Shown in pieces: positions 13,532 through 59,327 of a DNA stretch of 64,000 nucleotides. The stretch lies in contig CATQHZ020000001.1 in NCBI GenBank assembly GCA_958296135.2, positions 4,768,001-4,832,000 of the forward strand, given 5' to 3'. This stretch comes from an uncultured Poribacteria bacterium. GTDB lineage: Bacteria > Poribacteria > WGA-4E > WGA-3G. The translations under genes were made by a program, and so were the position numbers. The notes beneath the pieces were generated by a model. That model did not search any database and had not been told where the DNA came from. It saw only the letters and a list, made by a program, of their open reading frames with translations. Each line of letters opens with the position of its first letter. Positions within the stretch are counted from its first letter, which is position 1.

Positions 13532-13710
13532 CCGCACTACATAACCTATGAGCATCTCGTCAAATGTAGACTTATCTGGAAACCTGTGCAAAGTCTACGA
13601 GTCTCTGAGAGGTCAGCGGTTTCCTGCTTCTTCCGCGCACACGCGGGTTCTGATGCCAGCCTACCAAAGTAGGTGTGACAGCATCTCCACAGGCGTTTAG
13701 ACTCTCGTCC
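13532..13710 (-). ncRNA. Predicted TnpB omegaRNA (reRNA) scaffold overlapping the tnpB 3' end and the element right end
   Basis: Typical GCCTGTGGAG...GAAGCAGGAA pattern; scaffold ends at the right end. Boundaries are approximate. Confidence 0.65.
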
Positions 13711-14801: not shown

Positions 14802-14902
14802 AGCGTCACCGTTCCCGTTGGGTGTCACCTGCTGCTAGATAGGTGGGGCGAGAGACACGGCGGGATGCCGCGCCTAGCAGTCTCGCCCCCAACGGTAACT
14901 AC

Positions 14903-19375: not shown

Positions 19376-19850
19376 CCGTAGCGCGCGGGCCGTCACGGCC
19401 ACGCCTGCAGAGCGCGAGGGAAAACCCGGCGAACACCAATCGCCGAGGGGAACCCTCGCGAGCGTGGACCGAAACAAAAACGCCACCTTCCACCGAAACA
19501 AAAACGGCCCCTTGAACCGTAGCGCGAGGGCCTGTCCCTCGCGATCGTGGGTCGAAGCGAAAACGCCACTACTACCGGCCCTAGCATGGCGCGGCACAGG
19601 ACCGCGCCCTACGGTTCAAGGGGGCCCTTCCCCTCGCGAGCCCACGACCGACACAAAAAACGCCAATACCAACCCCGCGCGCCCCCCTTGATAGACCCAC
19701 GCATGCGAGGCACAGGCCCTCGCCCTACGGACTAAGGACCACCGTCCCGCGCAATCCCCTCGATAGACCCTAGCATGGCGAGGCACAGGCCCTCGCCCTA
19801 CGGACTAAGGGAGCCCTCCCCTCGCGATCCCCCAACCGAAACGAAAACGC
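19376..19850. repeat. REP/REPIN array
   Basis: GTAGCGCGAGGGCCTGTCCCTCGCG on plus and GTAGGGCG(C/A)GG..CTGTGCC(G/T)CGCCATG on minus, with A/C-rich spacers. Confidence 0.9.
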
Positions 19851-21356: not shown

Positions 21357-21925
21357 GCGTCCAAAAAAACGCCAATACCAACCGAAACGCAAGAAACAGC
21401 ACCTTAAACCGGCCGCGCGAACCCCCCTGATTGACCCTAGCATGGCGCGGCACAGGACCGCGCCCTACGGACTAAGGGGGCCCTTTCCCTCGCGAAGCCC
21501 CGAACGAAACGAAAACGCAAAAACGCTACTTTTACCGTAGCGCGAGGGCCCGGCGATCACTAATCGCCGAGGGTTCCCCTCGCGATCGTGGGTCGAGCCG
21601 AAGAACCTCCCCTCCTACCGTAGCGCGAGGGCCCGGCGAGCGCGAATCGCCGAGGGAAACCCTCGCAATCGTAGGAGACGAAAACGGCCCTTCCACCGGC
21701 CCTCGCGAACCCCTTCGATTGACCCACACATGGCGCAGCACAGGACCGCGCCCTACGGTTCAAGGGGGGGCCTGTCACTCGCGAACCCCCTTGATAGACC
21801 CACGCATGGCGCAGCACAGCACCGCGCCCTACAGACTAAGGACCACCGGCCCGCGCAATCCCCTCAATAGACCCAGGCATGGCGCAGCACAAGACCGCGC
21901 CCTACGGTTCAAGGGGGCCCTCCCC
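21357..21925. repeat. REP/REPIN array
   Basis: Multiple GTAG-REP1 and REP2 units, some carrying a CGGCGA...TCGCCG loop cassette. Confidence 0.9.
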
Positions 21926-22684: not shown

Positions 22685-23085
22685 GAATAGGCCCCTTGAA
22701 CCGTAGCGCGAGGGCCTGTCCCTCGCGAATCCCCGACCGACACAAAAAACGCCACCTTCCACCCAAACAAAAACGGCCCTTAAACCGTAGCGCGAGGGCC
22801 GTCACGCCGAAACTTTGTCATCTCTGCAGTCCCGCTGCAGAGATGTCCACTGTCCCTCGCGATCCCTCGATCCAAGCGAAAACGCCAATTAAACCGCAGC
22901 GCGAACCCCTTCGATTGACCTAGCATGGCGCAGCACAGGACCGCGCCCTACGGACTAAGGAAGCCCTCCCCTCGCGATCCCTCGATCCAAGCGAAAACGC
23001 CAATTAAACCGCAGCGCGAACCCCCCTTGATAGACCCACGCATGGCGCAGCACAGGACCGCGCCCTACGGTTCAAGGGGGCCCTT
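22685..23085. repeat. REP/REPIN array downstream of RAYT
   Basis: REP1 and REP2 units, with a 50-bp loop cassette at 22801-22850. Confidence 0.9.
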
Positions 23086-23604
23086 TCCTTTCCCTCCACC
23101 ACGGCGAAAATTCTCTGGCACAAGATAGGACCGGTCCAAAACCCACTGCCGCGGATTATTTTCAATATACGCACGAAACGCTCCCAAATCTGACGCATCG
23201 CGGATAACGTGCTCATGGAAACCCGGCTGCCACAACTTTTTACTAAAACGCCGCCAGCCCGCCGATGAAACTCCCCGAATATACGCACGCGTCGTAACAG
23301 ACTTAAAATAATTCACAATCTCCAGCAAGGACACCGCCGGAGAAGACTCCCGCAAAATAAATAAGATACCGTGGAAATGATCCGGCATCGCCTGACAAAA
23401 ATCCATCTGGAGATGTGGATACCGATGCCGCAATGCTGCCCACTGCCTTTCAAGCATGCTCGCAGCATCGTTTAAGATGAGCGCACCATCGCTGAGACCG
23501 CCGAAAAGGCAGGAGCGGTTGCGGGTAGCAAGGGTAACAAGGTACGCCCCCGGCTGGGAATAGTCGTATGCAGTGAGATGCGGATTTTTGCGTGATTTTT
23601 TCAT
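23065..23604 (-). CDS. rayT: REP-associated tyrosine transposase (RAYT/TnpA-REP, Y1 HUH)
   Basis: YDYSQPGAYLVT..T..R, MPDHFHGI (HUH), LWQPGFHEHVIRD, YIENNP (catalytic Tyr); flanked by REP arrays; its stop codon is the TAG of a REP GTAG. Confidence 0.92.
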   Translation of the reverse strand: MKKSRKNPHLTAYDYSQPGAYLVTLATRNRSCLFGGLSDGALILNDAASMLERQWAALRHRYPHLQMDFCQAMPDHFHGILFILRESSPAVSLLEIVNYFKSVTTRAYIRGVSSAGWRRFSKKLWQPGFHEHVIRDASDLGAFRAYIENNPRQWVLDRSYLVPENFRRGGGKGKGPLEP

Positions 23605-23609
23605 AAACA

Positions 23610-24520
23610 AAAACGGCCCCTTAAACCGTACAAAAACGGCCCTTGAACCGTAGCGCGAGGGCCCGGCGATCGCGAATCGCCGAGGGTTCCCCTCGCGATC
23701 GTGGATCGAAACAAAAACGCCCCTTTTACCGTAGCGCGAGGGCCGTTACGCCGAAACTTTGTCATCTCTGCAGCCTCGCTGCAGAGATGTCCACTGTCCC
23801 TCGCGATCGTTGATCGAAACAAAAACGCCCCTTGAACCGTAGCGCGAGGGCCGTCACGCCGAAACTTTGTCATCTCTGCCGCCTCGCTGCAGAGATGTCC
23901 ACTGTCCCTCGCGAACCCTCGACCCAAACAAAAACGGCCCTTCCACCAAAACAAAAACGGCCCCTTTTACCGTAGCGCGAGGGCCGTTACGCCGAAACTT
24001 TGTCATCTCTGCCGCCTCGCTGCAGAGATGTCCACTGTCCCTCGCGATCGTGGGTCGAGCCGAAGAACCTCCCCTCATTCCGTCTTGATAGACCTTAGCA
24101 TGGCGAGGCACAAGACCTCGCCCTACGGACTAAGGGGCCCTTTCCCTCGCGAACCCCATCGATAGACCTTAGCATGGCGAGGCACAAGACCTCGCCCTAC
24201 GGACTAAGGGGCCCTTTCCCTCGCGAACCCCATCGATAGACCTAGCATGGCGCAGCACAGGACCGCGCCCTACGGTTCAAGGGGCCCTTTCCCTCGCGAA
24301 CCCCATCGATTGACCTTAGCATGGCGAGGGACAGGCCCTCGCCCTACGGTTCAAGGGGCCCTTTCCCTCTGGCATGGCGAGGCACAAGACCTCGCCCTAC
24401 GGTTCAAGGGGCCCTTTCCCTCTGGCATGGCGCAGCACAAGACCGCGCCCTACGGTTCAAGGGGGCCCTTTCCCTCTAGCATGGCGCGGCACAGCACCGC
24501 GCCCTACGGACTAAGGGGCC
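23610..24520. repeat. Large REP array upstream of RAYT
   Basis: A run of REP1 units (three with the 50-bp cassette), then seven tandem REP2 units spaced about 73 or about 53 bp. Confidence 0.92.
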
Positions 24521-24526
24521 ACCCCT

Positions 24527-24571
24527 TAAAACAAAAAGCGCGGGCAATTTCATAAGAAATCGCCCGCGCTT
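24527..24571 (-). terminator. Rho-independent terminator of the large surface-protein gene
   Basis: AAGCGCGGGCGATTTC-TTAT-GAAATTGCCCGCGCTT followed by TTTGTTTT on the minus strand. Confidence 0.85.
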
Positions 24572-24600
24572 CGCGTTAGATGAGCTCTCCCTGAGAGAGA

Positions 24601-27600
24601 CTACTCACGATATTTCAATGCACCCCAGGTGGTCGTCGCTTTCCCTGCAGCACCCACATGCCCGTAAAGACGCGTGGTCCGCAAGGTCTGACGATCTCCA
24701 TCCAAGGAGACATCTTCGATTTGATAGAAATACAGAACATTCGGTTTGGCACTGGTGTCCGTCCACGTATACGTGTTCTTCTCACCCGTCGTGCCCGCAC
24801 CCGGAATCAACTGCGAATTGATCTTCGTGAACTCGCCTGTCCGAGACGCGCCACGCAGAATGTTAAACCCTGCATTGTCTAACTCAGACTCCGTCGCCCA
24901 CGTGATGACAACAGCACCCGCATCGTTACGCTTCGAGTAGAAACTCGACAACTGAACAGGCAGCGGACCGCCCGGCGTATAACCCGGTGTGCCGATATCG
25001 TCTTCATCGCCGTAGTAGAGGGTCTCAACACCCACTTCGCCACCATTCGTGTTGACCGCGGAACGCCATGCATCATCTTCCGTGCCATCACCTTCGGTGC
25101 CACTCACGCGGACCATGGAACTACGGCCGCCCTCTTCAAGGTTACCACCCTTCAAGGGCCAATTCGGTGCGGCGTTGCGCTTGTCGTCAAGGTTACCCAC
25201 CTCATCTACCATCACCTTATCAGGATCGGAGAGGCTGATGTAGAACCCAATGGTACTCAGCACGGCATCCCGACGACTTGTCATTTCTGCCGTATCGCGG
25301 AGACTCCGGGTCGACCAGATGCTGATAATCCGATCTCTCGGGAACCGCTTGTCGTCGTTGGAATCACCAGACGCACTCACAACCAGAACGGTCTGATTCG
25401 GCTGGATCCGCACGTCAGGCAGTCTCAACTCATAGTCAAACTTGACATTCAGGTCCTCCGAAGCATCGCTGACGTTCCGGACATTCAGTCTCCAACCATT
25501 TAACTTGACAGCCTGCGTCTTGGAGGGGTTATACAGCTCGATCCACTGCGGCACGCGGCCATTACCTGTGCCGAACATAATCTCGCTGATAACAACAGGA
25601 TCGGAGGCCGTGAGATCTTTGACTTTATCCTTCACGGCACCGTTGTCGTAACCCGGTGTACCGCTATTCATCGTAGTCGCAGCCCGGTCTATCCCGAGAC
25701 CCGTCACGCCGCCATCATGCTTCCAAGCATCGGCGTGGTCAAGGTTCTTGCCCTTGTCACGAACCCAGGTGTTGCCATTGCTCTCATTGAGATCGTTGGT
25801 TTGAATCGCCTCCCAGACTTTCAGCGGCCAGACTTTGGTACCCCGAGCATCATCGCTGAGGTTCAGATTCCCGATATGCCCAGCGATGTCAACAATCTTC
25901 TCATCTGATCCGAGCTTTTTCTCCGTCCGAAGGACGAGGAGGTAATTCTCTTTCGGAATATTCAGACCGCTGTCAATATAGAATTGCGTCGGCAAACCGT
26001 TCGCATTGCTACTCGGATTGTCAACGTTCTCACCCGCGGAGAGTGAAGTCTCGGACGGATCTTCATTGACAACCATCAGGAAGCCTTTCGCGGGAACCAT
26101 AATGTTCTCATCGCTCTCAAACGTAAACAGTTCGACGTCTTTATCATTACCAACACCGGTAACTTTGCTCAACACCCAGCCGTTGATTTTGACATCGGCA
26201 CTGCCAGGGTTGTAAAGTTCAAGCCAGTCGTCTTTCTCGCTGCTGCGGTTAGCAACCTCGTTGAAAACAACCGACTTGCTGATGCTCGTCTTGGTAATCT
26301 GCACCACCGCGCTTGTGCCCGGTGTGCCGAGACGAAGACCGCTCATGTTACGGCGGGGAGCCTTAGAAGCCTGCCAACTGCCGGATCTCGCACCGTCAGG
26401 AACCGCCCCTAATTGCTTATTCCGATTCTTAGCCGCGTCATTGGCATCATGTACCTTAGCGACATCAACGTAATTGATCTTACGCTCCATCGAAACGAGT
26501 TGACGTGCAGATACAACCACCGTCGCCTCTGTACGCCCACCTTGCCCGTAGGCACCACCGGCTACGTCGGAAACCTGCCAATAATTTTCGCCTAATCCCC
26601 AGTTAGTCAATTTATCAACCACTGGCGCAGCGGTAGTCGTGGCAGGGCCCGCTTTATCTGCGGGAACCGCAAGCATCGTAGCACCATTACCACCGTCTGT
26701 AAACTCAACTGTAAGCATGCCGGTGATAGCACTCGCTGTGGTATTATAGATTTCAATCCACTGGCTGTTCGTTGAAGGATTCTTCGAGGCATCGTTACCC
26801 CACATCAACTCACTGATAACGAGATCTTTCACATTCGCCCCAGTGAATTTCAGATCTATAGCACCACCACTGCCGGTCGCAAGGAAGTCACTCAGATCGA
26901 CCCAAGCTTCGTCTGCAACGTCCACGGGTGTGAGACCCGTAATACCGGAATCGTTAGGAGACTTCGCAAGCACCGTCCAATCATTAGCCGGAACTGTGAC
27001 CTGGACACTAAATCCTTTTCTTCCTGTCGGAAGCGACGTGCCAATTCCAGTCGGTGTCGTGGTAACAGGCACTGTAGTAACGGTAACTGTAAACGGCTTT
27101 GAGATCGCGGCATTACCGAGACCCGCTGACATCACACCATCTGCCTTCACTGTGACTGTCACAGGAGACTTCCGATCAGCCGCGTCCGGCAGCACAACCA
27201 TCGCAGTGTAGATAGCTTTCACGTCAGCCGTAGGAGGCATCGTTAGATCTCTGCTCAGACTACCTTCTTCAAGCGAACCGTTAGTAACGGTAATATCTGT
27301 CGCCTGTAAGCCATCGTTGGCACCGGCTCCCGGTTCCGCTGAAAGTTCAAACGTTACAGGAAATTTAAGCGTCATCGCATCAATCGGCACCGTAACCGTA
27401 GAATTAATGGTCACCGTCGGACGAGGGTTAATCGTGACATCCTCCGTCATCGCAGGATCGAGCTTGTTCCCGTTCACATCAGCGACAGCATCCTTCTTCA
27501 CCCCGACTGTCACCTTCGTGGCACCGTCAGCCGGATTGATGACAACAATAAACGTAGGTGTGCCCGCTGCAGCACCAGGTTTTGCCCACGAACCTACAAC

Positions 27601-28359
27601 TTCTGAAGGATCATCAGCACCTGAGGCAGGCGCAGGCGTGGTTGCAATGCTAACATCATCAGCATGAGCAAACCCAGCAGCTCCAGTCCCGAGGGGCTCG
27701 GAAAACTCAAACTCTAACTGAAAGATATCGTCAACACCCATGCCACCAGTAACGCTAATCGCCGACGCAGTACCTCCCGTGTTTGCTCCTCCGGTTATTG
27801 TTACCGTCGGTTTCAGCGTATCAAGGCTATCGTAAGCAATCGTCGCCACCACGCCAGTAGCGTCATACGTGTTAGTAGGAGCGGCATCTTCTTCAAACTC
27901 TACGCTGCCAGTAACAAAGGCTCTAAGACCAATGATGAGATTGCCCTTCTCATTGGTGGGAACTGCTACAGTCACTGTAAACGTCGTTCCTAATCCCGCT
28001 GTCGGCGTGCTATCCGTTTTCGCGAGCTCAGAACTTGTAGGCCGACGACTCTCACTGCTACCGTCTTCCTTATTAAAAGTGACTATAATATCTTCGACAC
28101 CAAATCCATCCACAGTAGTAACAGCAGCAGTCTCACCTGCCTTAGTCTCACCTGCCACCTTCACTGCTGCAGTGAAGGTGATTGTGGCTACAACATTGCC
28201 GCTCATAGCGGTCGCCCCCGCCGCGGGCGTTGTCTGTACTACCGTCGGTGTGCCTCCCAGGGCGGCATGCACGTCCACCACTGGAGCCGCGAGGAAGGTA
28301 ATTCCTGCGATCAGCAGTAAGACAAAGAAACTCGGTAAGGAAAGTAATTTCCTTTCCAT
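24601..28359 (-). CDS. Large secreted protein with Ig-like and three lamin-tail (LTD) domains; Poribacteria-type C-terminal domain
   Basis: Signal peptide; Thr/Val-rich Ig-like repeats; LVISELM..QWIEIYN, VVFNEV..DWLELYN, VVISEIM..QWIELYN; PLPVQLSSF...ATTWGALK. Confidence 0.88.
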   Translation of the reverse strand: MERKLLSLPSFFVLLLIAGITFLAAPVVDVHAALGGTPTVVQTTPAAGATAMSGNVVATITFTAAVKVAGETKAGETAAVTTVDGFGVEDIIVTFNKEDGSSESRRPTSSELAKTDSTPTAGLGTTFTVTVAVPTNEKGNLIIGLRAFVTGSVEFEEDAAPTNTYDATGVVATIAYDSLDTLKPTVTITGGANTGGTASAISVTGGMGVDDIFQLEFEFSEPLGTGAAGFAHADDVSIATTPAPASGADDPSEVVGSWAKPGAAAGTPTFIVVINPADGATKVTVGVKKDAVADVNGNKLDPAMTEDVTINPRPTVTINSTVTVPIDAMTLKFPVTFELSAEPGAGANDGLQATDITVTNGSLEEGSLSRDLTMPPTADVKAIYTAMVVLPDAADRKSPVTVTVKADGVMSAGLGNAAISKPFTVTVTTVPVTTTPTGIGTSLPTGRKGFSVQVTVPANDWTVLAKSPNDSGITGLTPVDVADEAWVDLSDFLATGSGGAIDLKFTGANVKDLVISELMWGNDASKNPSTNSQWIEIYNTTASAITGMLTVEFTDGGNGATMLAVPADKAGPATTTAAPVVDKLTNWGLGENYWQVSDVAGGAYGQGGRTEATVVVSARQLVSMERKINYVDVAKVHDANDAAKNRNKQLGAVPDGARSGSWQASKAPRRNMSGLRLGTPGTSAVVQITKTSISKSVVFNEVANRSSEKDDWLELYNPGSADVKINGWVLSKVTGVGNDKDVELFTFESDENIMVPAKGFLMVVNEDPSETSLSAGENVDNPSSNANGLPTQFYIDSGLNIPKENYLLVLRTEKKLGSDEKIVDIAGHIGNLNLSDDARGTKVWPLKVWEAIQTNDLNESNGNTWVRDKGKNLDHADAWKHDGGVTGLGIDRAATTMNSGTPGYDNGAVKDKVKDLTASDPVVISEIMFGTGNGRVPQWIELYNPSKTQAVKLNGWRLNVRNVSDASEDLNVKFDYELRLPDVRIQPNQTVLVVSASGDSNDDKRFPRDRIISIWSTRSLRDTAEMTSRRDAVLSTIGFYISLSDPDKVMVDEVGNLDDKRNAAPNWPLKGGNLEEGGRSSMVRVSGTEGDGTEDDAWRSAVNTNGGEVGVETLYYGDEDDIGTPGYTPGGPLPVQLSSFYSKRNDAGAVVITWATESELDNAGFNILRGASRTGEFTKINSQLIPGAGTTGEKNTYTWTDTSAKPNVLYFYQIEDVSLDGDRQTLRTTRLYGHVGAAGKATTTWGALKYRE

Positions 28360-28915
28360 TTAATTTACCTCCGTAAAGAGTATAAAAACTAGAATTAATC
28401 ATTATTATTGGGTTCAGCCGGCTTCTAACGCGTGAGCTCGGTGTCGCCCAATAATCCTCAGGGATTTAGAAGATTCGCTCATGTCGGCTTTCGCCGTGTT
28501 GAGGTTTCTTCATCGTCAACTAGAGAGCCAATCTCTCTAGCGTCATCTAACAAAGTTCTCCAATTCTCCGTATTGCGGTTGCGCTCAGTCGATTGCAACC
28601 TACGGGGTCTTGGGTATATGGTTTTTCGGGTTTAGTCTTGCGCGTTCGTGTGTCCGTTGCTTACGATTTATGCGTAGCCGTTGACACGGGTTAGTTCCGC
28701 GCGGTCTGCCCTATTTGGGCGGTCCAGTTGCGGCGATTTTATGCGCGATGCCAAACCTTAGACACATTCTCTACAATCTCTAAAACGTGAGTTGTGAAAA
28801 ATCGGTTACAAAAAAACACACAAAAAATGTGGATTTCCGATTTTCTGCTCGATTTCAGAGGTTGGGTGGATTTTGCGCGTCAATCCTCTCGCGTTTTCCA
28901 CCGTAATTATGGTTA

Positions 28916-28944
28916 ATTATACCACAAAAGTGGGTAGATGTCAA
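28916..28944 (-). promoter_or_regulatory. Consensus sigma-70 promoter P1 of the surface-protein gene
   Basis: TTGACA-17-TATAAT with extended TG. Confidence 0.85.
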
Positions 28945-29096
28945 ATTTTTTTAGAAAAAATCTGCATCGTTAGTTAATGTATCACATTTTGCGGTTTTTT
29001 GTCAACAATTTTCCGTTGGGCGGGAGTTCGTATTCAGGACAGATTGCTATAGTTGTCCGTTGCTCGCGCGTGCCGGCATGGAAAACTGATACGTTA

Positions 29097-29125
29097 ATTA
29101 TACCTAGAAAACGGTTTGATGTCAA
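29097..29125 (-). promoter_or_regulatory. Consensus sigma-70 promoter P2 (part of a duplicated ~95-bp block)
   Basis: TTGACA-17-TATAAT. Confidence 0.85.
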
Positions 29126-29373
29126 ATTTTTTTAGAAAAAATCCACATCATTTAAGATTGTATCACAATTTAAGTGATTTTATCAAGCAAATTCATCAAA
29201 AAAAGTGATATGGAGTCAAAAATCCGTTAGATTTCCCTTAAAAAGTTGTCATCGTCGCCTATTTTCGCATTTTTTACAATTTTTGTCAAGAAAAAAAGCG
29301 AAAAAAGCGAAAAAAGATGCGAGGGTCATTTTTCCAAGAAAGTGTATCATGAAAAAAGCCATCATCATTTATG

Positions 29374-29402
29374 ATTCTATCATTTTCCCGCGTTTTCGTC
29401 AA
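29374..29402 (-). promoter_or_regulatory. Sigma-70 promoter P3
   Basis: TTGACG-17-TAGAAT. Confidence 0.65.
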
Positions 29403-29454
29403 GAAAAAAATTGTGTGGCGCGGATACGTTCAAAAACCGCCCCTAACGCAAGAA

Positions 29455-29662
29455 ACGGCCCCTTGAACCGTAGCGCGAGGGCCCGGCGATCGCTAATCGC
29501 CGAGGGTTCCCCTCGCGATCCCCCGACCGTCTCAAAAACGTCAATTAAACCACAGCGCAAAAGCCCATCCCTCGCAGCCCCTTCGATAGACCTAGCATGG
29601 CGGAGGAAACCCTCGGCGATTAGCGATCGCCGGGCCCCCGCCCTACGGACTAAGGGGCCCTT
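29455..29662. repeat. REP/REPIN array
   Basis: REP1 and REP2, both carrying the CGGCGA...TCGCCG cassette. Confidence 0.9.
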
Positions 29663-29669
29663 GCGCTCA

Positions 29670-30035
29670 TTACGAACTCTCAACACCGTTCGGCGGCGGC
29701 TCGTCAAACGGTTCACCCTTCTCAGCCGCAGCGATGCGCCGTTCATACCACGCGTTAGCGGCCGCCTGTTCCTCCTGCAGCTGCGCGACAACACCGGGGT
29801 CTGTCCCATTAGGCATCGGTTCGTCAAACGGCGCGCCAATTTGCTCAGCGTGGAGACGGCGTTTGTTCCAAGCCTGCAGCGCCTCGCGTTCTTCCTGTAA
29901 CCGCGCAATGGTCTCGGCAGCACGGCGGTTCTCTTCAGCAGCCGTGCGTATCGCCGCTTCCGCAGCAAGTCGGCCTTCGCGCTCCTCGCGAATCCTACCA
30001 TCGCGCCATTCACGATACCGGTCATGAAGCATCAT
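29670..30035 (-). CDS. Small soluble protein with two AW..RR..G.PFDEP.P modules (copy 1)
   Basis: SD AAGGAG 8 nt before ATG 30035; homologous to 32009-32347 and 32874-33212. Confidence 0.8.
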   Translation of the reverse strand: MMLHDRYREWRDGRIREEREGRLAAEAAIRTAAEENRRAAETIARLQEEREALQAWNKRRLHAEQIGAPFDEPMPNGTDPGVVAQLQEEQAAANAWYERRIAAAEKGEPFDEPPPNGVESS

Positions 30036-30051
30036 CAGAAACACTCCTTAG

Positions 30052-30668
30052 CCCGTAGCGCGAGGGCCTGTCCCTCGCGATCGTTCATCGAAACGAAAAC
30101 GGCCCCCTTCCACCATCGCGCGAGGGCCGTTACGGTCACGTCTACAGTTGTCCCTCGCGAGCGTTCATCGAAACGAAAACGGCCCCCTTCCACCGTCGCG
30201 CAAGAGCCTCTCCCGCGCCGCCCATCGATAGACCTAGCATGGCGGAGGACAGGCCCCCGCCCTACGGACTTAGGGGGCCCCTTGAACCGTAGCGCGAGGG
30301 CCTGTCCCTCGCGATCGCTAGACCGAAACAAAAACGCACCGCCTACCGGCGCGCAAGAGCCTGTCCCGCGCGAGCCCCTTGATAGACCTAGCACGGCGGG
30401 GGACAGGCCCCCGCCCTACGGACTTAGGGGTCCCTTCGCACCGTAGCGCGAGGGCCCGGCGAGCGCGAATCGCCGAGGGGAACCCTCGCGAGCGTTCATC
30501 GAAACGAAAACGGCCCCCTTCCACCGTCGCGCAAGAGCCTCTCCCGCGCCGCCCATCGATAGACCTAGCATGGCGGAGGACAGGCCCCCGCCCTACGGAC
30601 TAAGGGGCCCTTAAACCGTAGCGCGAGGGCCCGGCGAGCGCGAATCGCCGAGGGGAACCCTCGCGAGC
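30052..30668. repeat. REP/REPIN array
   Basis: Multiple REP1 and REP2 units; 20-bp loop cassette at 30129-30148. Confidence 0.9.
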
Positions 30669-30694
30669 ACTCGATCCAAACAAATTTGTGTTAC

Positions 30695-30723
30695 AGTTTA
30701 CGTTATTTGCGGCGAAAAATCAA
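30695..30723 (-). promoter_or_regulatory. Sigma-70 promoter reading into the REP array
   Basis: TTGATT-17-TAAACT; near-identical copy at 33686-33714. Confidence 0.6.
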
Positions 30724-30768
30724 GGGACATTCGCACCGGCACGGAACAAAACGGGCCTGCTAGCGCGC

Positions 30769-31233
30769 CTATCCCCCAACTTCCTGTAGCCATGTGTATG
30801 GATTTTCGACGCGCACGCGAAGATGCTCGTGGGACCGTTTCGCCCTCTTAAGCAATCCATCGTCCGTTGTGAGCAAGACATCCGCGCCGCCGCTCTCTGC
30901 ACACGCAATATGCAAGGCATCAAACCACGGGAATCCTAGCCATTCCAGTTGGACGGCCCGGGCGGTTTCCATCTCACCAACGCGAACCGTTTGATGCGCC
31001 GTATTCAGTTTGGTATTGATGGTATTACGCTGTGTCACATTAGGATTCTGGGCAACTTCATTTGCCAAAGCATCACTCACAATCCAATGTAAGTGCCCCG
31101 TGGAGAAATAAGCATTGAGTCGCTGAAATGCCTCGGTCTCTTGGCGCACCCGATCTTGCGTCTGATCGTCAAAGGGCCGCCCCAAGCAGCACGTATCCAG
31201 ATAGATGTTCTGGTGGTGGAACTGACTTTGCAC
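30769..31233 (-). CDS. PIN-domain (VapC-like) toxin
   Basis: IYLDTCCL.RPFDDQ, DALHIACAE, LLTTDD, VENP. Confidence 0.9.
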   Translation of the reverse strand: MQSQFHHQNIYLDTCCLGRPFDDQTQDRVRQETEAFQRLNAYFSTGHLHWIVSDALANEVAQNPNVTQRNTINTKLNTAHQTVRVGEMETARAVQLEWLGFPWFDALHIACAESGGADVLLTTDDGLLKRAKRSHEHLRVRVENPYTWLQEVGG

Positions 31234-31241
31234 GAGTCTGC

Positions 31242-31826
31242 CTATTCCTTTCCGCTGCGCTGCTTCGCCTTGCGTGCCTCAAAAATTTGCGCGAGGAATT
31301 CTTCCTTACTGATCTGACTCAGCCATTTGCGCCGTTCTAAGGTGTAGTTGCCGGTGCCCGGGGTGCACAGCAGAGACAACCGAAACAGGCCCGGGAGCCC
31401 CAGTTCTTTTGAAACCGCATCAAGCCCGAGTTGATGCACCTCACAATCTGTCAACTGACTAATGTCTTTCGGAGGTTCATTGACAGCGCGGCTTGCATGG
31501 CATTCGCGCAAGGAATCCACTGAATCCCTCTTTTCGTCGCTCGTGCAGGAAGCATGTTCCACGACATCAACCCCCTCTTGCAGGGGGTTTCCGCCTTGCA
31601 CCGTCGGTAACAACTGTTCGCGTTGACAAAGGGAAGCCTGCATCCCACGCATCAGCGTTGCCTTCTCCAACTCATCTACCCATTCACGGCGTTTCGCCGC
31701 CTTGTCGCCCATACCGGCTTTAGCAAACGCCAGAAACCGCTTTAGCCCAAAGGGGCCTAAGGTCTCCAAAAGTGTATCAAGTATCAGTTGATACCACTCC
31801 GGATCTGTCATTTCAAGTCTATTCAT
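31242..31826 (-). CDS. Putative antitoxin with an internally duplicated domain
   Basis: Two copies of (M/L)TD.E..QL.LD....LG..GL.R.......G.G...RR.W; lies directly upstream of the PIN gene; TTGACA-18-TAAAAT at 31878-31849. Confidence 0.75.
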   Translation of the reverse strand: MNRLEMTDPEWYQLILDTLLETLGPFGLKRFLAFAKAGMGDKAAKRREWVDELEKATLMRGMQASLCQREQLLPTVQGGNPLQEGVDVVEHASCTSDEKRDSVDSLRECHASRAVNEPPKDISQLTDCEVHQLGLDAVSKELGLPGLFRLSLLCTPGTGNYTLERRKWLSQISKEEFLAQIFEARKAKQRSGKE

Positions 31827-32008
31827 CCTCAATTACCTCCTATTAATTATTTTACTTTAAGTTGCCACCGAATGTCAAACAGCCGAAAGCGTGGGGCCAC
31901 GGGCAGGGAGAGGCCGGTTTTCTTCACCGTAGGGCGGAGGCCGTTACGCCTTCAGTCTGTCATCTCCGCCGGTTTTCCTGCAGACATGTCCACTGTCCCT
32001 CACGAGCA

Positions 32009-32347
32009 TTACGAACTCTCAACACCGTTCGGCGGCGGCTCATCAAACGGTTCACCCTTCTCAGCCGCAGCGATGCGCCGTTCATACCACGCGTTGGCAG
32101 CCGCTTGTTCTTCCTGCAACTGCTCAAGAACAGGAGAACCCGTCCCATTAGGCATCGGTTCGTCAAACGGCGCGCCATTTTCTTGCGCCCGGAGACGGCG
32201 TTCGTTCCAAGCCTGCTGAGCACCGCGTTCTTCCTGTAACTGTGCGACAGCCGCGCGCGCCGTTTCCTCCGCAGCGTGGAGCCGCGCTTCCAGCTCGCGC
32301 CGACGTGCCGCCAATTTTTCGCGATACCACTCATGTAACATCATCAT
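32009..32347 (-). CDS. Small soluble AW..RR..EP.P-module protein (copy 2)
   Basis: SD AGGAG; near-identical to 32874-33212. Confidence 0.8.
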   Translation of the reverse strand: MMMLHEWYREKLAARRRELEARLHAAEETARAAVAQLQEERGAQQAWNERRLRAQENGAPFDEPMPNGTGSPVLEQLQEEQAAANAWYERRIAAAEKGEPFDEPPPNGVESS

Positions 32348-32379
32348 TAAAACTCCTGTGGAGAAGGAGCCGTTTTTTC

Positions 32380-32866
32380 CACCGTAGCGCGAGGGCCTGT
32401 CCCTCGCGATCGTCGATCAAGCCGAAAACCTCCCCTTCCACCGTCGCGCGAGGGCCGTTACGGTCACGTCTACAGTTGTCCCTCGCGAGCGTTCATCGAA
32501 ACGAAAACGGCCCCCTTCCACCGTCGCGCAAGAGCCTCTCCCGCGCCGCCCTTCGATAGACCTAGCATGGCGGAGGACAGGCCCCCGCCCTACGGACTAA
32601 GGGGCCCTTCCACCATCGCGCAAGAGCCTGTCCCGCGTGATCGTTCATCCAAACAAAAACGGCCACTTCCACCAACGAAAAACGCCACTTTCACCGTAGC
32701 GCGAGGGCCCGGCGATCACTAATCGCCGAGGGTTCCCCTCGCGATCCCCCGACCGTCTCAAAAACGTCAATTAAACCGTAGCGCGAGGGCTTGTCCCTCG
32801 CGAGCCCCTTGATAGACCTAGCATGGCGGAGGACAGGCCCCCGCCCTACGGACTTAGGGGCCCTTT
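32380..32866. repeat. REP/REPIN array
   Basis: REP units; part of an 865-bp tandem duplication. Confidence 0.9.
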
Positions 32867-32873
32867 GCGCTCA

Positions 32874-33212
32874 TTACGAACTCTCAACACCGCTCGGCGG
32901 TGGCTCGTCAAACGGTTCACCCTGCTCAGCCGCAGCGATGCGCCGTTCATACCACGCGTTGGCAGCCGCCTGTTCCTCCTGCAACTGCGCGACAACACCG
33001 GGGTCTGTCCCATTAGGCATCGGTTCGTCAAACGGCGCGCCGTTTTCTTGCGCCCGGAGACGGCGTTCGTTCCAAGCCTGCTGAGCACCGCGTTCTTCCT
33101 GTAACTGTGCGACAGCCGCGCGCGCCGTTTCCTCCGCGGCGTGGAGCCGCGCTTCCAGCTCGCGCCGACGTGCCGCCAATTTTTCGCGATACCACTCATG
33201 TAACATCATCAT
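32874..33212 (-). CDS. Small soluble AW..RR..EP.P-module protein (copy 3)
   Basis: Offset 865 bp from copy 2; a mosaic of copies 1 and 2. Confidence 0.8.
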   Translation of the reverse strand: MMMLHEWYREKLAARRRELEARLHAAEETARAAVAQLQEERGAQQAWNERRLRAQENGAPFDEPMPNGTDPGVVAQLQEEQAAANAWYERRIAAAEQGEPFDEPPPSGVESS

Positions 33213-33244
33213 TAAAACTCCTGTGGAGAAGGAGCCGTTTTTTC

Positions 33245-33648
33245 CACCGTAGCGCGAGGGCCTGTCCCTCGCGATCGTCGATCAAGCCGAAAACCTCCCC
33301 TTCCACCGTCGCGCGAGGGCCGTTACGGTCACGTCTACAGTTGTCCCTCGCGAGCGTTCATCGAAACGAAAACGGCCCCCTTCCACCGTCGCGCAAGAGC
33401 CTCTCCCGCGCCGCCCATCGATAGACCTAGCATGGCGGAGGACAGGCCCCCGCCCTACGGACTTAGGGGGCCCCTTGAACCGTAGCGCGAGGGCCGTTAC
33501 GCCGAAACTTTGTCATCTCTGCAGCCTCGCTGCAGAGATGTCCACTGTCCCTCGCGATCGTCGATCGAGATATAGACCCAGCATGGCGGAGGAAACCCTC
33601 GGCGATTCGCTATCGCCGGGCCCCCGCCCTACGGACTAAGGGGCCCTT
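33245..33648. repeat. REP/REPIN array
   Basis: REP units carrying the 20-bp, 50-bp and palindromic cassettes. Confidence 0.9.
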
Positions 33649-33685
33649 CACGCTTCTTCAAAGCAGCTCCTTCTATTTCTGTTAC

Positions 33686-33714
33686 AGTTTACGCTATTTG
33701 CGGCGAAAAGTCAA
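33686..33714 (-). promoter_or_regulatory. Sigma-70 promoter reading into the REP array
   Basis: TTGACT-17-TAAACT. Confidence 0.65.
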
Positions 33715-33738
33715 GGGACATTTGCACACCAGCGGCAC

Positions 33739-35481
33739 TTAGGCATCACATGCCCCACATTTCCTGCAAACCGCCGTATCGCACTCACTCGTCATGAAGC
33801 CTTTTTCATGCTTGTGGAACTCTAACCGCAGGAATTGCGGTTTCACGTTCAGATCGAGGTGGGCCCAAGGGGATATTTCATGGAGGGGACGTTGACGGAG
33901 GGCATAAAAATCGGGGGCTAACCCGTGTTGACGGAACGCTTGATTCCACGCTGCGCCGCGCGCGAGGGCTAAAATCACCTTGCCGAGCCGCCGGTCGCCG
34001 CGCGCGAAGACTGCTTCCTGATGCGCCAGCCGCGCACTTGCAGAACCAACCTTGATGCTACCGAGCCGGTTAATCTCGCGCTTGAGAAAATCAAGTTTCC
34101 GAGCGATAGTCTTCGGCGGTTCCATCGCTACCCACTGGAACGGCGTGTGCGGCTTCGGCACCATCGGCGAGATAGTGAAACTGATGCGGCCCATTCTCCC
34201 AGTCCGCTTCGCATGCGGGAGAAGAATGCTGCGCATCTCTCTCGCCATATCGGCGATAGCCTGCACATCTGCCGGTGTCTCGTCCGGCACACCGATGAGG
34301 AAATAGAGACGCAAATTGAGGATGTCGCGCTTCAACGCCTCTTCAAAGATATAATAGAGACGTTCACGCGGGATGGCCTTGTTGACGACTTTCTGCAGAT
34401 GCTCGGTGGCAACCTCGGGGGCAATGGTAATGGTGCCTTGTTCGCTGTCGGCGAGGGCATCAAGGAGCGGCGCGCGCACCGTCTCCGCACGGAGCGAAGC
34501 ACAGGAGATGCGGAAGCCACGCGCCACTAAGCCGGCAGCAATCTCGTCGATTTGCGGATGGTCAGAAATCGAAGCACCGACTAAGCCAATTCTGTCCGTG
34601 ATGCCGCGGGCGCGCTCAGCAAGAGCAAGCGTGTTTTCAACAGAGCGATGCCTCGGCCAGCGGCGCGCGTAATCCGCAACGCAGAACCGACACTGCCGGC
34701 CACAACCCCGCACAATTTCAATCAGGTGCGCATTGGAAAATTCGGTATGCGGCGTATGAAGCTGCGTGCAGGTCTGGACATCATCAAGCTTCGGCACAGC
34801 AGCGGCGTGAATCGGAAGAGACGCGCCGGAACCGCACCGCGGCTGCACATGCTGGACAGTGCCATCATCGTGATAGGTAACGTCATAGAAACATGGCACA
34901 TAGAGCCCAGGAACCATCGCGAGCGTTTCAAGCAACTCGGTCTTCGGCGCGCCGCTCTGTTTCCACGCATCAAAGCGCGCCATCAATTCGTGGATAACCA
35001 ACTCCGCCTCTCCGACAACGAAAACGTCAACGAAATCCGCGATAGGTTCCGGATTATAGGAGATGTTAATGCCACCGGCGATGACGAGCGGATCCCAGTC
35101 AGAACGTTCTTCAGCGAGGGGCGGGATATTGGCGAACTCCAGCACGCGCGGGATGTTCACGTAATCGGACTCAAAGGAGACAGAGAACCCAATGATGTCG
35201 AATTGGTTAAGCGGCGTTTGCGTCTCAAATGAGAAGAGCGGTGTTTTCTGAGCGATGAGCTGCCGCAGATAACTGGCTTCGGGCACGAAGGCACGCTCGC
35301 AAGAGGTATCCGCACGCGCGTTAAGCGTGGCATAGATAACCTGAACGCCGAGACTGGACATGCCGAGCTCATAAGTGCTCGGATAGACAAGAGCAAATCG
35401 GTTACGTTTTCGGAACTGCGAGAACTGCTGGTTTTCGTGCTCTTGCTCGAGTAAGTGTTGGTAGTGTTTTCGTAGATTCAA
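33739..35481 (-). CDS. Radical SAM protein (TIGR03960-like, B12-binding-like N-terminus)
   Basis: YPSTYELGMSSLG, NPEP, EIVRGCGRQCRFC (CxxxCxxC), PKPHTPFQW. Confidence 0.9.
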   Translation of the reverse strand: MNLRKHYQHLLEQEHENQQFSQFRKRNRFALVYPSTYELGMSSLGVQVIYATLNARADTSCERAFVPEASYLRQLIAQKTPLFSFETQTPLNQFDIIGFSVSFESDYVNIPRVLEFANIPPLAEERSDWDPLVIAGGINISYNPEPIADFVDVFVVGEAELVIHELMARFDAWKQSGAPKTELLETLAMVPGLYVPCFYDVTYHDDGTVQHVQPRCGSGASLPIHAAAVPKLDDVQTCTQLHTPHTEFSNAHLIEIVRGCGRQCRFCVADYARRWPRHRSVENTLALAERARGITDRIGLVGASISDHPQIDEIAAGLVARGFRISCASLRAETVRAPLLDALADSEQGTITIAPEVATEHLQKVVNKAIPRERLYYIFEEALKRDILNLRLYFLIGVPDETPADVQAIADMAREMRSILLPHAKRTGRMGRISFTISPMVPKPHTPFQWVAMEPPKTIARKLDFLKREINRLGSIKVGSASARLAHQEAVFARGDRRLGKVILALARGAAWNQAFRQHGLAPDFYALRQRPLHEISPWAHLDLNVKPQFLRLEFHKHEKGFMTSECDTAVCRKCGACDA

Positions 35482-35498
35482 TATGCTGCTCCAGTGGC

Positions 35499-35912
35499 TC
35501 AGAGTTGGTATTCCGTGCGTTCGCCGCCATGTGCCGGATTATGGATAAGCCCCTCTCTCACATTCACATCCAGATCTAACAGTTCCATCACCATATGCCC
35601 AACAAGCGCAGGAACGTTGTCCGGCAAACTGCTTACCTCTATGATGCCTTTCCGCGATAGCACGGTAAACTGGACAGGCGAATAAAGCGTCCGAGTCACA
35701 ATGCCGTTTGTCGTGTGGACCAGGGTGGTATCGGTAGGTGTCAAACCGAGACTGTCAATTATCGATTGCGGCAAAGAGAGCCGCGTCGCACCGGTATCAA
35801 CAATCGCGCCTTTGATAGTCACCTGCCGAACCTCTTCAGAACCAATAATGCCAACTTCAGCCAAAACCAGATCTTTCTGATTTGCGACGTGGATGGTGGT
35901 CCTGTGTTGCAT
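35499..35912 (-). CDS. Clan AA aspartyl protease (tandem copy 2)
   Basis: IVDTGATRLSLP, ALVGH; SD GGAGGAG. Confidence 0.88.
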   Translation of the reverse strand: MQHRTTIHVANQKDLVLAEVGIIGSEEVRQVTIKGAIVDTGATRLSLPQSIIDSLGLTPTDTTLVHTTNGIVTRTLYSPVQFTVLSRKGIIEVSSLPDNVPALVGHMVMELLDLDVNVREGLIHNPAHGGERTEYQL

Positions 35913-35937
35913 CGTTTTATCTCCTCCAAAGATGTCA

Positions 35938-36354
35938 TCAGAGTTGGTATTCCGTGCGTTCGCCGCCATGCGCGGGATTATGGATAAGCCCCTCTCTCAC
36001 ATTCACATCCAGATCTAACAGTTCCATCACCATGTGTCCCACAAGCGCAGGAACGTTGTCCGGCAAACTGCTTACCTCTATGATGCCTTTCCGCGATAGC
36101 ACGGTAAACTGGACAGGCGAATAAAGCGTCCGAGTCACAATGCCGTTTGTCGTGTGGACCAGGGTGGTATCAGTAGGTGTCAAACCGAGACTGTCAATTA
36201 TCGATTGCGGCAAAGAGAGCCGCGTCGCACCGGTATCGACAATCGCGCCTTTGATAGTCACCTGCCGAACCTCTTCAGAGCCAATAATGCCGAGTTCTAC
36301 CGCAACCAGATCTTTCTGATTTGCGACGTGGATGGTGGTTCTATGTTGCATCAT
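35938..36354 (-). CDS. Clan AA aspartyl protease (tandem copy 1)
   Basis: Near-identical to 35499-35912, 439-bp offset. Confidence 0.88.
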   Translation of the reverse strand: MMQHRTTIHVANQKDLVAVELGIIGSEEVRQVTIKGAIVDTGATRLSLPQSIIDSLGLTPTDTTLVHTTNGIVTRTLYSPVQFTVLSRKGIIEVSSLPDNVPALVGHMVMELLDLDVNVREGLIHNPAHGGERTEYQL

Positions 36355-36557
36355 TTTATCTCCTTTCAAACGGATAAGAGTCCGGCGCGCTGCCATCACC
36401 GTCCCGGACTCACGTAGTAACGAGGAGCTGTCCCTCGCAATGCCGAGGTAGAGCCCGTCAGAATGTTCATCTGAGCCCTACCTCGCCTCGTTTGAACGCA
36501 ACCGAACGGAAACGACAGCGCGAGAAACAAAACGGTTCCGCCGGGCAGACTGCGCGC

Positions 36558-37907
36558 CTATTTCCCAGACTTCCCGCCTCGCTTCTGCACGCGCAGGAAG
36601 GCCGGAATATCCCAGTCCGTCTCGCCACGTCCGCTGCTAGTCCCGGTGGCGGCAGGTTGCTGCGCGGGTGCCGGTCTCCGTGCCTGTCTCGCAGGTGGTT
36701 TTTCCGCCGGTGGCTGCTGCGCCGGCGCGGCAGGCGCGCCGGCGGCAGGGAACCCAGCTGCAGAACGGCCCGGGCGCGTTCGGCCCTGGGGTGCCGCGCT
36801 CGTACGGGAACCACCCAGATGCTGCCCAGGCAGCGGTGCCCGGCGTTCCGGGTAAGCCTCCTGTTCATTGTACTGCCTCGGTGCCACCCGCGGATCGACC
36901 CCGGATGCGCGCAAATCCTCTGTATCAAACCCTGTCGCAATGACGGTGACAAGCACCTCATCGCCGAGCTCCAAACTGTCTTTGTAGACAAGCCCGAAGA
37001 TAATCTGCGCATCGGTAGCCGCATCTTGGATTACCTGCATCGCCTCATCCAATTCGTGCATCATGAAATCGGGCGGTGAGGTGATGTTGACAATCATGCC
37101 ATAGGCACCGTTGATGTCAGTTTCCTCAAGAAGCGGCGAAGAAATTGCCTGTTGGGCAGCGGCTTGCGCACGGTTATCGCCCGTGGCGCGCCCCATGCCC
37201 ATCAGCGCACTGCCTGCTTCACGCATGATAGACTCCACATCGGCGAAGTCAACGTTAATCTCACCCGCCTCCGTAATAATATCCGAGATACTCTGAACGC
37301 CGTGGAGCAAAATCTCGTCTCCAACGCGGAGCGCCTCCTGAATCGGCAGTTTTCTGTCCATCGCATCCATCAAGCGTTGGTTCGGAACGACGATGACAGA
37401 ATCGGCGGATGCACGAAGCTCCTCAAGACCGGTTTCGGCTGCCTCGGCGCGCCGCATCCCCTCAAAATTGAAAGGACGGGTAACAACACCGATAGTGAGT
37501 GCCCCGCGTTCGCGCGCAAGCGATGCAATGAGCGGCGCTGCCCCGGTGCCAGTACCGCCGCCCATGCCAGCGGTGACGAACACCATGTTCGCATCCTCAA
37601 CAATCTTTTGCAGATGCTCCCGGTCTTCTTCCGCCGCTTTTCGGCCAACTTCGGGATTCGCACCGGCACCAAGGCCGTTAGTGGTGTTAATCCCAATCTG
37701 GAGTTGTGTCGCGCCATGGCACGTTTTCAACGCTTGATGGTCGGTGTTCACCGCGTAGAATTCGATGCCGGCTAATCCTGCTTCAATCATCCGTTTGACA
37801 GCGTTGCCACCAGCACCGCCGACACCGATGACCTTAATTTTCGCCCGCAGATCTCCAAATTCTTCTTGTTCAAATTCAATCATGTCTGGTTTCGGTTGCG
37901 CTTGCAC
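36558..37907 (-). CDS. ftsZ: Cell division protein FtsZ
   Basis: GVGGAGGNAV, GGGTGTG, NVDFAD, C-terminal DIPAFLR. Start uncertain (37946, 37907 or 37883). Confidence 0.97.
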   Translation of the reverse strand: MQAQPKPDMIEFEQEEFGDLRAKIKVIGVGGAGGNAVKRMIEAGLAGIEFYAVNTDHQALKTCHGATQLQIGINTTNGLGAGANPEVGRKAAEEDREHLQKIVEDANMVFVTAGMGGGTGTGAAPLIASLARERGALTIGVVTRPFNFEGMRRAEAAETGLEELRASADSVIVVPNQRLMDAMDRKLPIQEALRVGDEILLHGVQSISDIITEAGEINVDFADVESIMREAGSALMGMGRATGDNRAQAAAQQAISSPLLEETDINGAYGMIVNITSPPDFMMHELDEAMQVIQDAATDAQIIFGLVYKDSLELGDEVLVTVIATGFDTEDLRASGVDPRVAPRQYNEQEAYPERRAPLPGQHLGGSRTSAAPQGRTRPGRSAAGFPAAGAPAAPAQQPPAEKPPARQARRPAPAQQPAATGTSSGRGETDWDIPAFLRVQKRGGKSGK

Positions 37908-38094
37908 TACAACCTCATTCCTCCTATTTTTTCCCGATGATACCAAATCAATTCACGCTAATTCAGGCTCGTCCGAACCCGAAAGGTCAAAATCAGGGAA
38001 TCTGGTTTCCCTACAGAGATGAGACAAATCAACGTTATTTGGTATTATAGACTCGATTTGACTGCACCTATTGGACATCATAACACTGCATTGC

Positions 38095-38385
38095 GATCGA
38101 AACAAAAACGGCCCATTCAACCGTAGCGCGAGGGCCGTCACGGTCACGCCTACAGAAAACGTGCGTGTGTCGCCCCGCGTAAACACGGTCACGTCTACAG
38201 AAAATGTGCGTGTGTCGCCCCGCGTAAACACGCTACCTTACTTACTTTAACTTTGTCCTCTCTGCAGCCTCGCTGCAGAGATGCCCACTGTCCCTCGCGA
38301 ATCGCTAACAAAAACGGCCCATTCAACCGTAGCGCGAGGGCCCGGCGATCGCGAATCGCCGAGGGTTCCCCTCGCGATCGCTCGA
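38095..38385. repeat. REP array with a 152-bp composite loop cassette
   Basis: Insert 38137-38288 contains a 45-bp tandem duplication. Confidence 0.9.
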
Positions 38386-59315: not shown

Positions 59316-59327
59316 GCGCGAAAAAGG

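Follow-up and report, generated by a model that had tools for sequence, protein, structure and literature searches.

The closest described relatives of the system considered here are the repetitive extragenic palindromes (REPs) and bacterial interspersed mosaic elements (BIMEs) of Escherichia coli, high-copy GC-rich hairpins with a GTAG tag within whose arrays lies the gene of a Y1/HUH enzyme, TnpA-REP (PMC3333891, PMC3479197). The enzyme cleaves at C^T, with GGCC^TACA as a strong and GACC^TACA as a weak site, and performs strand transfer in vitro (PMC3333891); the C^T is believed to be recognized by A3 and G4 of the tag (PMC3479197). In the published model of BIME diversification (Ton-Hoang 2012, PMC3333891) a polymerase extends the 3'-OH, a second cut resolves the tyrosine link and a unit is added, so that nicking, extension and rejoining predict a tandem gain of units. 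The stretch of DNA analysed here, called the window throughout, comprises 64,000 nucleotides from an uncultured Poribacteria bacterium (assembly GCA_958296135.2, contig CATQHZ020000001.1, positions 4,768,001 to 4,832,000). It is rich in GTAG-tagged REP hairpins, many of which carry in their loop one of two kinds of small cassette, B and D, and it includes a gene for a divergent REP-associated tyrosine (HUH/Y1) transposase (RAYT), RAYT1. We regard the chances as even that B and D are small non-autonomous hairpin elements inserted by a RAYT-type HUH/Y1 enzyme into the single-stranded DNA (ssDNA) loop of GTAG REPs.

The likeness to E. coli extends to the sites, since the cassettes are found at GGCC^T, the strong site of TnpA-REP, and in a second host repeat at GACC^T, the weak one (PMC3333891). 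There are also differences. In E. coli the cut sites lie beside the hairpins, within inverted REPs or linkers, and not in the loop, and nested cassettes are not described there; in addition, the left junction here is C^G, and RAYT1 shares only about 26% identity with typical RAYTs and does not reach the NCBIfam cut-off. A further comparison is with the work of Di Nocera, De Gregorio and Rocco (2013, PMC3733652), in which GTAG-23 REPs of T. roseum lie inside small palindromes that also occur empty in hundreds of copies, and in which the GTAG-3 and GTAG-14 families combine short loops with self-complementary ones as long as 27 bp. These are brief mentions without analysis of site, polarity or timing, whereas in the genome studied here it is a REP that acts as host palindrome, the guests measure 50-290 bp with a variable number of 45-bp units, and there is evidence of recent gain or loss. 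REP-targeting insertion sequences (ISs) and the ssr9 module of ISPpu9 resemble the cassettes in using one fixed REP position and, for ssr9, in being a small non-coding module with a transposase acting in trans (PMC1525189, PMC12288879); unlike the cassettes, which are far smaller and more numerous, they require transposases of IS110, IS3 or similar type, and an IS110 transposase was not found here. Fixed-position insertion into REPs by ISs and ssr9, REPs nested in palindromes and alternative long REP loops are already known. An earlier note on this DNA, made from the sequence alone, knew of no description of such micro-insertions, which was too broad a statement, palindromes hosting REPs, with empty copies, and long REP loops having been in print in 2013 (PMC3733652). 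No description of variable-unit REP-like cassettes at the loop cut site of another REP family was found in the literature, supplements not being covered.

Cassettes in the loops of REPs

The hosts are ordinary GTAG REPs. The genome under study (G000) consists of four contigs, and the one with the window (C1) measures 5.01 Mb with 54% G+C. The commonest hairpin in the window reads GTAG-CGCGAGGG-CCTGT-CCCTCGCG, and its head has 38 matches there against 0.71 expected by chance, a number reached in none of 100 shuffles. An empty copy, GTAGCGCGAGGGCC^TGTCCCTCGCG at 22703-22727 (+), is made up of the tag, an 8-bp stem (CGCGAGGG/CCCTCGCG) and the loop CC^TGT, and folds as ssDNA with -10.8 kcal/mol (z -4.4). 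Genome-wide, heads of the type GTAGCGCGAGGG with at most one mismatch number 1,369, and GTAG followed by 8 nt, CCTGT and 8 nt occurs in 985 copies, which are the only REP loops among 8,932 occurrences of CCTGT. The stems belong to many families with compensatory changes (among them CGCGAGGG, GGCGAGGG, CGCGGGGG, GGCGGGGG, GTTGAGGG and GGCGCGGT), and the loop CCTGT is kept in all of them. These GC-rich palindromes with a 5' GTAG tag, present in more than 100 copies and stable as ssDNA hairpins, have the properties by which REPs are recognized. Contig C2 (143,886 bases) has 37% G+C against the 54% of the main contig and none of the 1,369 heads, and could represent either a foreign plasmid or contamination.

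The gap between REP head and right arm falls into sharp classes of 5 nt (534 copies), 9 nt (78), 28 nt (129) and 32 nt (51), and into longer ones of 55 nt (123), 104 nt (19) and 153 or 157 nt (7). When the scan was widened to all GC-rich stems, 1,272 GTAG REPs could be classified by their loop: 843 had the empty CCTGT and 71 the same with an additional AAAA, 142 had a longer loop of type A and 45 type A with AAAA, 120 carried B, and D was present with one, two, three or four extra units in 29, 12, 6 and 2 copies, respectively. REPs filled with B or D thus amount to about 170. Roughly one in five copies of the repeat has a second small hairpin element at the fixed point of its loop.

Cassette B is 50 bp long and consists of GTYACGCCGAAAC-KTTGT, an 11-bp hairpin and TCCAC. 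In the window it fills REPs at 22787-22861 (+; insert 22801-22850) and 33482-33556 (+; insert 33496-33545, with an empty paralogous REP at 30289-30313), and an array of three REPs at 23731-24046 (+; inserts 23745-23794, 23853-23902 and 23986-24035); a diverged 51-bp B of a long-loop subtype occupies a REP of stem GGCGGAGG at 31929-32004 (+; insert 31943-31993). As ssDNA, the first of these folds with the 11-bp hairpin of B nested inside the REP stem (-21 kcal/mol, z -5.7). Cassette D has the first six bases and the hairpin tail of B and, between them, at least one 45-bp unit and a small TTAC microrepeat. The D-filled REP of the window, at 38123-38299 (+), has an insert of 152 bp (38137-38288) made up of head, two 45-bp units, TTAC microrepeat and B-type hairpin tail, in which Tandem Repeats Finder detects a repeat of period 45 at 38139-38232 (2.1 copies, 95% matches). 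Genome-wide the cassettes form a series of 50, 99-103, 148-152, 197, 234-242 and 285-287 bp, which results from the combination of 45-bp units with the TTAC microrepeat. D grows through tandem duplication of these units, and serial nesting was not seen as a cause. Length classes that differ by whole internal modules also occur in pneumococcal BOX elements and in the long and short forms of Correia or ERIC elements, but these are free-standing and not guests in the hairpin loop of another repeat. On the minus strand B reads GTGG-A followed by its 11-bp hairpin, and in each D unit the sequence TTTTC^T-GTAG precedes an imperfect hairpin. Among the variants described for the GTAG tag is GTGG (PMC3733652). 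By these features both guests look like REPs facing the opposite way, and binding by a RAYT would be the prediction.

The position of the cassettes is fixed, as B and D always lie between the GGCC and the TGT of the REP loop. A cassette head follows the REP left arm (...GGGCC) in 220 cases and an inverted cassette in none, and of 240 cassette tails detected by nhmmer with a B profile, 219 have TGT next to them and 189 have TGTCCC. Target duplications are absent from the cassette junctions, which are ambiguous by one C only. A fixed short 5' target, a single orientation (220:0) and the lack of duplication are also the marks of IS200/IS605-type insertion, that of palindrome-associated transposable elements (PATEs). 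More than 95% of the cassettes are in REP loops and about ten lie elsewhere. In these respects the earlier note had read the window correctly, down to the coordinates it gave for the empty REP, for the inserts and loops it called A, B, C and D and for a composite at 19392-19452, and to the common start GT(C/T)ACG of B, C and D: cassettes begin with GTYACG, D has the first six bases of B, and C is the first 20 nt of D. Rfam has no match in the window region of the REP cassettes.

Most of the cassettes outside REPs sit in a second abundant palindromic repeat, CTGTAGGGAAACCAGCTCGCC...GGCGAGCCCGAACTACAG, which has only CC^TGT in common with the REP. Empty copies of this second host read ...cttgaCC TGTTgg..., and three copies hold a B-like cassette exactly between C and TGT. 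The four bases 5' of the cassette are GGCC in REPs and GACC, GAAC or GACT in the other host. The repeat has the layout ...CTGTAGGGAAACCAGCTCGCC-[variable centre]-GGCGAGCCCGAACTACAG-aggtgaattgggtat, with interchangeable small hairpin modules such as cccgatgtcactaacatcgg in the centre, and often lies just upstream of genes; its right-end motif has 236 matches at up to four mismatches, some of which are not real copies. No Rfam family matched this repeat or the contexts of the non-REP cassettes.

Comparison with two sister species of the same genus (G001 and G002), about 80% identical in syntenic genes, suggests that the cassettes are newer than their hosts, since the sisters share the empty REP and have neither B nor D. 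Counted over four stem types, there are 361 empty REPs in G000, 542 in G001 and 3,581 in G002, the last as exact 25-nt copies and about ten times the number in the genome under study. The cassette-head pattern has 178 matches in G000, one in G001, which is a remnant in a copy of the second-host repeat, and none in G002; the B tail motif, at two mismatches, has 13 matches in the two sisters, and the 12 inspected were all unrelated sequence. The G002 region syntenic to the window (G002:C1:3143678-3166464) is 70-87% identical over matched stretches, and in one orthologous comparison with a sister species, upstream of ftsZ, the intergenic repeats were quite different. Within the genome, B and D are spread over stems CGCGAGGG (84 B, 17 D), GGCGAGGG (22 B, 18 D) and CGCGGGGG (12 B, 5 D), all of which are present in G001, and at least nine B haplotypes are common to two or more stem families. 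Recent paralogue pairs with near-identical flanks include three of empty versus B, one of D with one extra unit versus B and one of B versus A. The three empty-versus-B pairs differ only by the 50-bp cassette, the best of them with one and two mismatches in the 100 bp on either side. Sister species, stem families with their haplotypes, paralogue pairs and the second host argue for real insertion over a single variant amplified with its REP, the outcome that the earlier note had named as its own refutation. Two scans of metagenomes with B patterns gave no match, in a collection that may leave out records near this genome; the region itself is present in X1-X4, four sequencing runs from a single sample, in the form of short-read contigs interrupted at REPs.

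Of the modular family of inserts A to D proposed earlier, B and D stand as inserted cassettes and the other two do not. C has three copies in the genome, all in the window (REPs at 30115-30159, 32443-32487 and 33308-33352, all +, with inserts 30129-30148, 32457-32476 and 33322-33341), in each of which TGT follows immediately on the first 20 nt of D. They are copies 1, 2 and 3 of one local triplication with identical flanks and hence represent one event and not a family: C goes back to one truncated D that was multiplied by local duplication. The view that the system builds nested cassettes also fell, given the tandem origin of the D length classes, and the composite is a real one, extending over 19378-19460 (+), in which a REP left arm and a truncated D-like head abut a second REP with an AAAA + A loop. 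A is distinct from the cassettes and older, being an alternative REP loop, long and self-complementary, and no clean insertion. In it, TGT is replaced by 26 nt ending in TTC, TTT or GAA, which gives a loop of 28 nt whose 7-bp inner stem varies in a compensatory manner (CGGCGAT/ATCGCCG and CGGCAGT/ACTGCCG). At least five stem families include it, with short loops and long, self-complementary ones coexisting in the same family as in the published long loops, and its greater age follows from the one copy present in G001. The window has A-type loops at 21537-21584, 21620-21667, 23650-23697, 29470-29517, 30443-30490, 30618-30665, 32696-32743 and 38329-38376 (all +) and, in REPs of stem family GGCGGGGG, at 29599-29646 and 33585-33632 (both -).

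A candidate enzyme and its possible chemistry

RAYT1 (181 aa, 23065-23610, -) lies among four B-filled REPs, with REP arrays on both sides, and matches Pfam Y1_Tnp with 29.8 bits (cut-off 23). It has the HFH motif, and one of its tyrosines aligns with Y115 of E. coli TnpA-REP. Its flanking REPs are inverted with respect to each other, with GTAG REPs on the plus strand 5' and a partner-type REP on the minus strand 3'. With RAYT1 as query, no such gene was found in G001, which is 86% complete, or in G002; RAYT1 is not, by this comparison, a vertically inherited RAYT common to the relatives that share its REP. The RAYT that G002 has at the syntenic position is another one, with 26% identity to RAYT1 and other REPs around it (GTAG-TTCGGGAGC). 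Only one intact Y1 gene was detected in G002. The nearest relatives of RAYT1 come from another family of the order (G019), where they are flanked by GTAG REPs with a CCCTGT loop; there the associated REP has only seven copies and no cassettes. The genome under study has one other Y1/HUH gene, also RAYT-like. This RAYT2 (G000:C1:3734400-3734858; locus L001 1898-2695, -) is a typical RAYT with 125 bits in NCBIfam (cut-off 80), about 26% identical to RAYT1, and lies amid tandem copies of a different repeat (type GGTAGGAGAGACCTCC); the RAYT of G002 that lies syntenic to RAYT1 is related to it.

RAYT-type nicking and strand transfer are our best explanation because GGCC^T matches the strong E. coli site (PMC3333891), as the RAYT-driven option of the earlier note would have it, and because RAYT1 lies among filled REPs and was not found in the sisters. 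Site, orientation, lack of duplication, lineage restriction, range of REP backgrounds, paralogue differences and second host are observed; the enzyme and every chemical step are inferred, as follows. The REP would be extruded or single-stranded, for example on the lagging-strand template, and an enzyme held by the GTAG tag and the hairpin would nick the loop at GGCC^TGT, becoming linked to the 5' T and leaving a 3'-OH on GGCC. The cassette could then be joined as excised ssDNA, or be copied by extension of the 3'-OH of GGCC on a cassette template. Cutting once more, at the ...CAC^T end that belongs to the cassette, would provide the 3'-OH that resolves the tyrosine link and would restore C^TGT at the right junction. 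D units could be gained or lost if this chemistry acted between two C^T sites spaced by 45 bp, and filled REPs would afterwards also spread as units. The docking sites are in keeping with such a scheme, being GGCC^TGT in the REP and GACC^TGTT in the second host, with CAC^TGT at the right junction of the cassette and D units bounded, on the minus strand, by C^T-GTAG.

Several observations weigh against insertion by a RAYT. The left junction is C^G (GGCC^GTYACG) and not C^T, so that two cuts of the E. coli type cannot explain a simple integration of a circle, and the extension route or another specificity has to be assumed. The proposed joining at C^T is read from the sequences of the junctions. 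The best family match of RAYT1, NCBIfam REP_Tyr_transpos, has 57.3 bits, below the cut-off of 80, and its link with the cassettes comes from one genome, G001 being only 86% complete. The same REP keeps its 3,581 copies in G002 without a detectable RAYT1, which is therefore not needed to maintain it. B and D are present in none of 116 REPs with AAAA, whose arms are identical to those of filled REPs, and in none of 225 REPs classified as GGT-CCTGT-GCC type, absences that could reflect lineage or target choice. The B haplotypes are reticulate, with all eight combinations of three common variable sites, and fit gene conversion as well. Part of the copy number surely comes from co-amplified filled REPs and from tandem duplication of arrays. 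A more specific version of RAYT insertion, in which B and D would be guest elements of a kind not recognized before, REP-like hairpin DNA that a horizontally acquired RAYT1 integrates at GGCC^T in the loops of older resident REPs, seems to us rather less likely than not, and less probable than the general proposal.

Alternative origins of the filled REPs

The rival that survives best is template switching or short-tract gene conversion among REPs without any dedicated enzyme, in which a filled REP serves as template for an empty one and the homology of arms of 8-14 nt brings the cassette always to the same place. The reticulate haplotypes are what it would produce, stem family, AAAA and A assort in all combinations, and tandem-array paralogue pairs lie 217-250 bp apart, where switching is easiest. 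Three chimeric copies, in which B stands between a REP1-type left arm ending in GGGCC and a right arm from the other type of REP (GGT-CCTGT-GCC), also suit it, and would equally be the expected product of a single strand exchange at the right junction. Arm homology cannot, however, explain the B-like cassettes in the unrelated second repeat and at a few other non-REP sites. B and D are missing from the AAAA-bearing REPs despite identical arms, and such arms are far shorter than homologous recombination usually needs. We consider template switching an unlikely origin of the cassettes, if the most credible of the alternatives.

Quite unlikely, in our estimate, is an origin of the cassettes from a REP-targeting IS (of IS110, IS3 or IS200/IS605 type), as its miniature derivatives or its footprints, with a transposase that has been lost or acts in trans. 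Five IS families insert at fixed REP positions (PMC1525189), the ssr9 module spreads into REPs with the transposase of ISPpu9 (PMC12288879), and the lack of duplication and the fixed orientation suit single-strand transposition. The genome has 34 TnpB genes of IS200/IS605 type, one of them in the window (13572-14828, -) and 33 elsewhere in contig C1. But these TnpB elements have ends unlike B or D and were rejected as the origin of the cassette termini; what looks like CCCTCGCC at the 3' end of the elements belongs to coding sequence. The genome yielded no TnpA of IS200 type, its only Y1 genes being the two RAYT-like ones. The IS110 DEDD transposase (PF01548) has no match in G000, the control search having matched in 6 of 14 genomes, and a search for Y2 (IS91-type) transposases matched neither G000 nor the control genomes. 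Among 29 orphan tails and the long cases inspected there was no long element with cassette ends (GTYACG.../...GATGTCCAC) and a transposase, which the earlier note had suggested looking for, nor an autonomous relative with the same ends encoding TnpA or TnpB such as PATEs have. An insert of about 3 kb (G000:C1:578855-581834; locus L002 356-3335) does split a REP of stem GGCGAGGG, with a D-cassette head at its left edge and the last 14-16 nt of a cassette tail at its right. It encodes a 564-aa DNA methylase with a weak Mrr-like domain, below the Pfam cut-off, and a 172-aa protein with a lipoprotein-like signal. Being without a transposase, it was rejected as a transposase-bearing long cassette, and looks like a restriction-modification-like gene that landed inside a cassette. 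A reading of the cassettes as integron attC-like sites was dropped, the GTYACG start being, as we take it, a poor fit to the GTTRRRY core.

Least probable and already disfavoured is that there was no independent insertion at all, each filled type having arisen once by mutation and been amplified with its REP while stems changed later: filled REPs surely move or duplicate as units, as arrays of three to five B-filled REPs and the triplicated C attest, and the nearest neighbours by flank of B/D REPs are slightly enriched in B/D (24.7% against a background of 16.6%, with REP flanks mostly unrelated), but the stem families are older than the cassettes and yet at least three of them have B and D, with haplotypes in common, the cassette is the sole difference within paralogue pairs, and the second host carries B-like cassettes too.

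Neighbouring features and wider meaning

Two further features of the window were noted. A small E/R/A-rich open reading frame of 112-124 aa without Pfam match is present in three copies within 3.5 kb (29670-30044, 32009-32347 and 32874-33212, all -), each followed by the same REP array, and matching DNA is found at the syntenic place in G002. At 59326-59765 (-) there is a match to class A RNase P RNA that measures 440 nt against the 367 positions of the model, and this gene may carry an extra insertion.

The published evidence for the movement of REPs consists, in the papers considered here, of cleavage and strand transfer in vitro by one E. coli enzyme (PMC3333891, PMC3479197) and of excision seen as rare sequencing reads (PMC3116915). 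The genome studied here may record how REPs move, with about 230 junctions whose sequence agrees with the strong site cleaved in vitro, recent paralogues distinguished solely by the cassette, a sister species with thousands of empty targets and no cassette, and a candidate enzyme found, of these genomes, in the cassette-bearing one only. Empty REP, filled REP and isolated cassette, each as either strand, also offer defined substrates on which integration by a RAYT could be tested directly. If the more specific version with RAYT1 is true, this would be the first natural record found of RAYT-catalysed integration, with exact junctions, polarity and unit-by-unit growth, and one REP family would be parasitizing another. 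Repeat families would then colonize each other's hairpin loops, which bears on the origin of mosaic intergenic repeat arrays.

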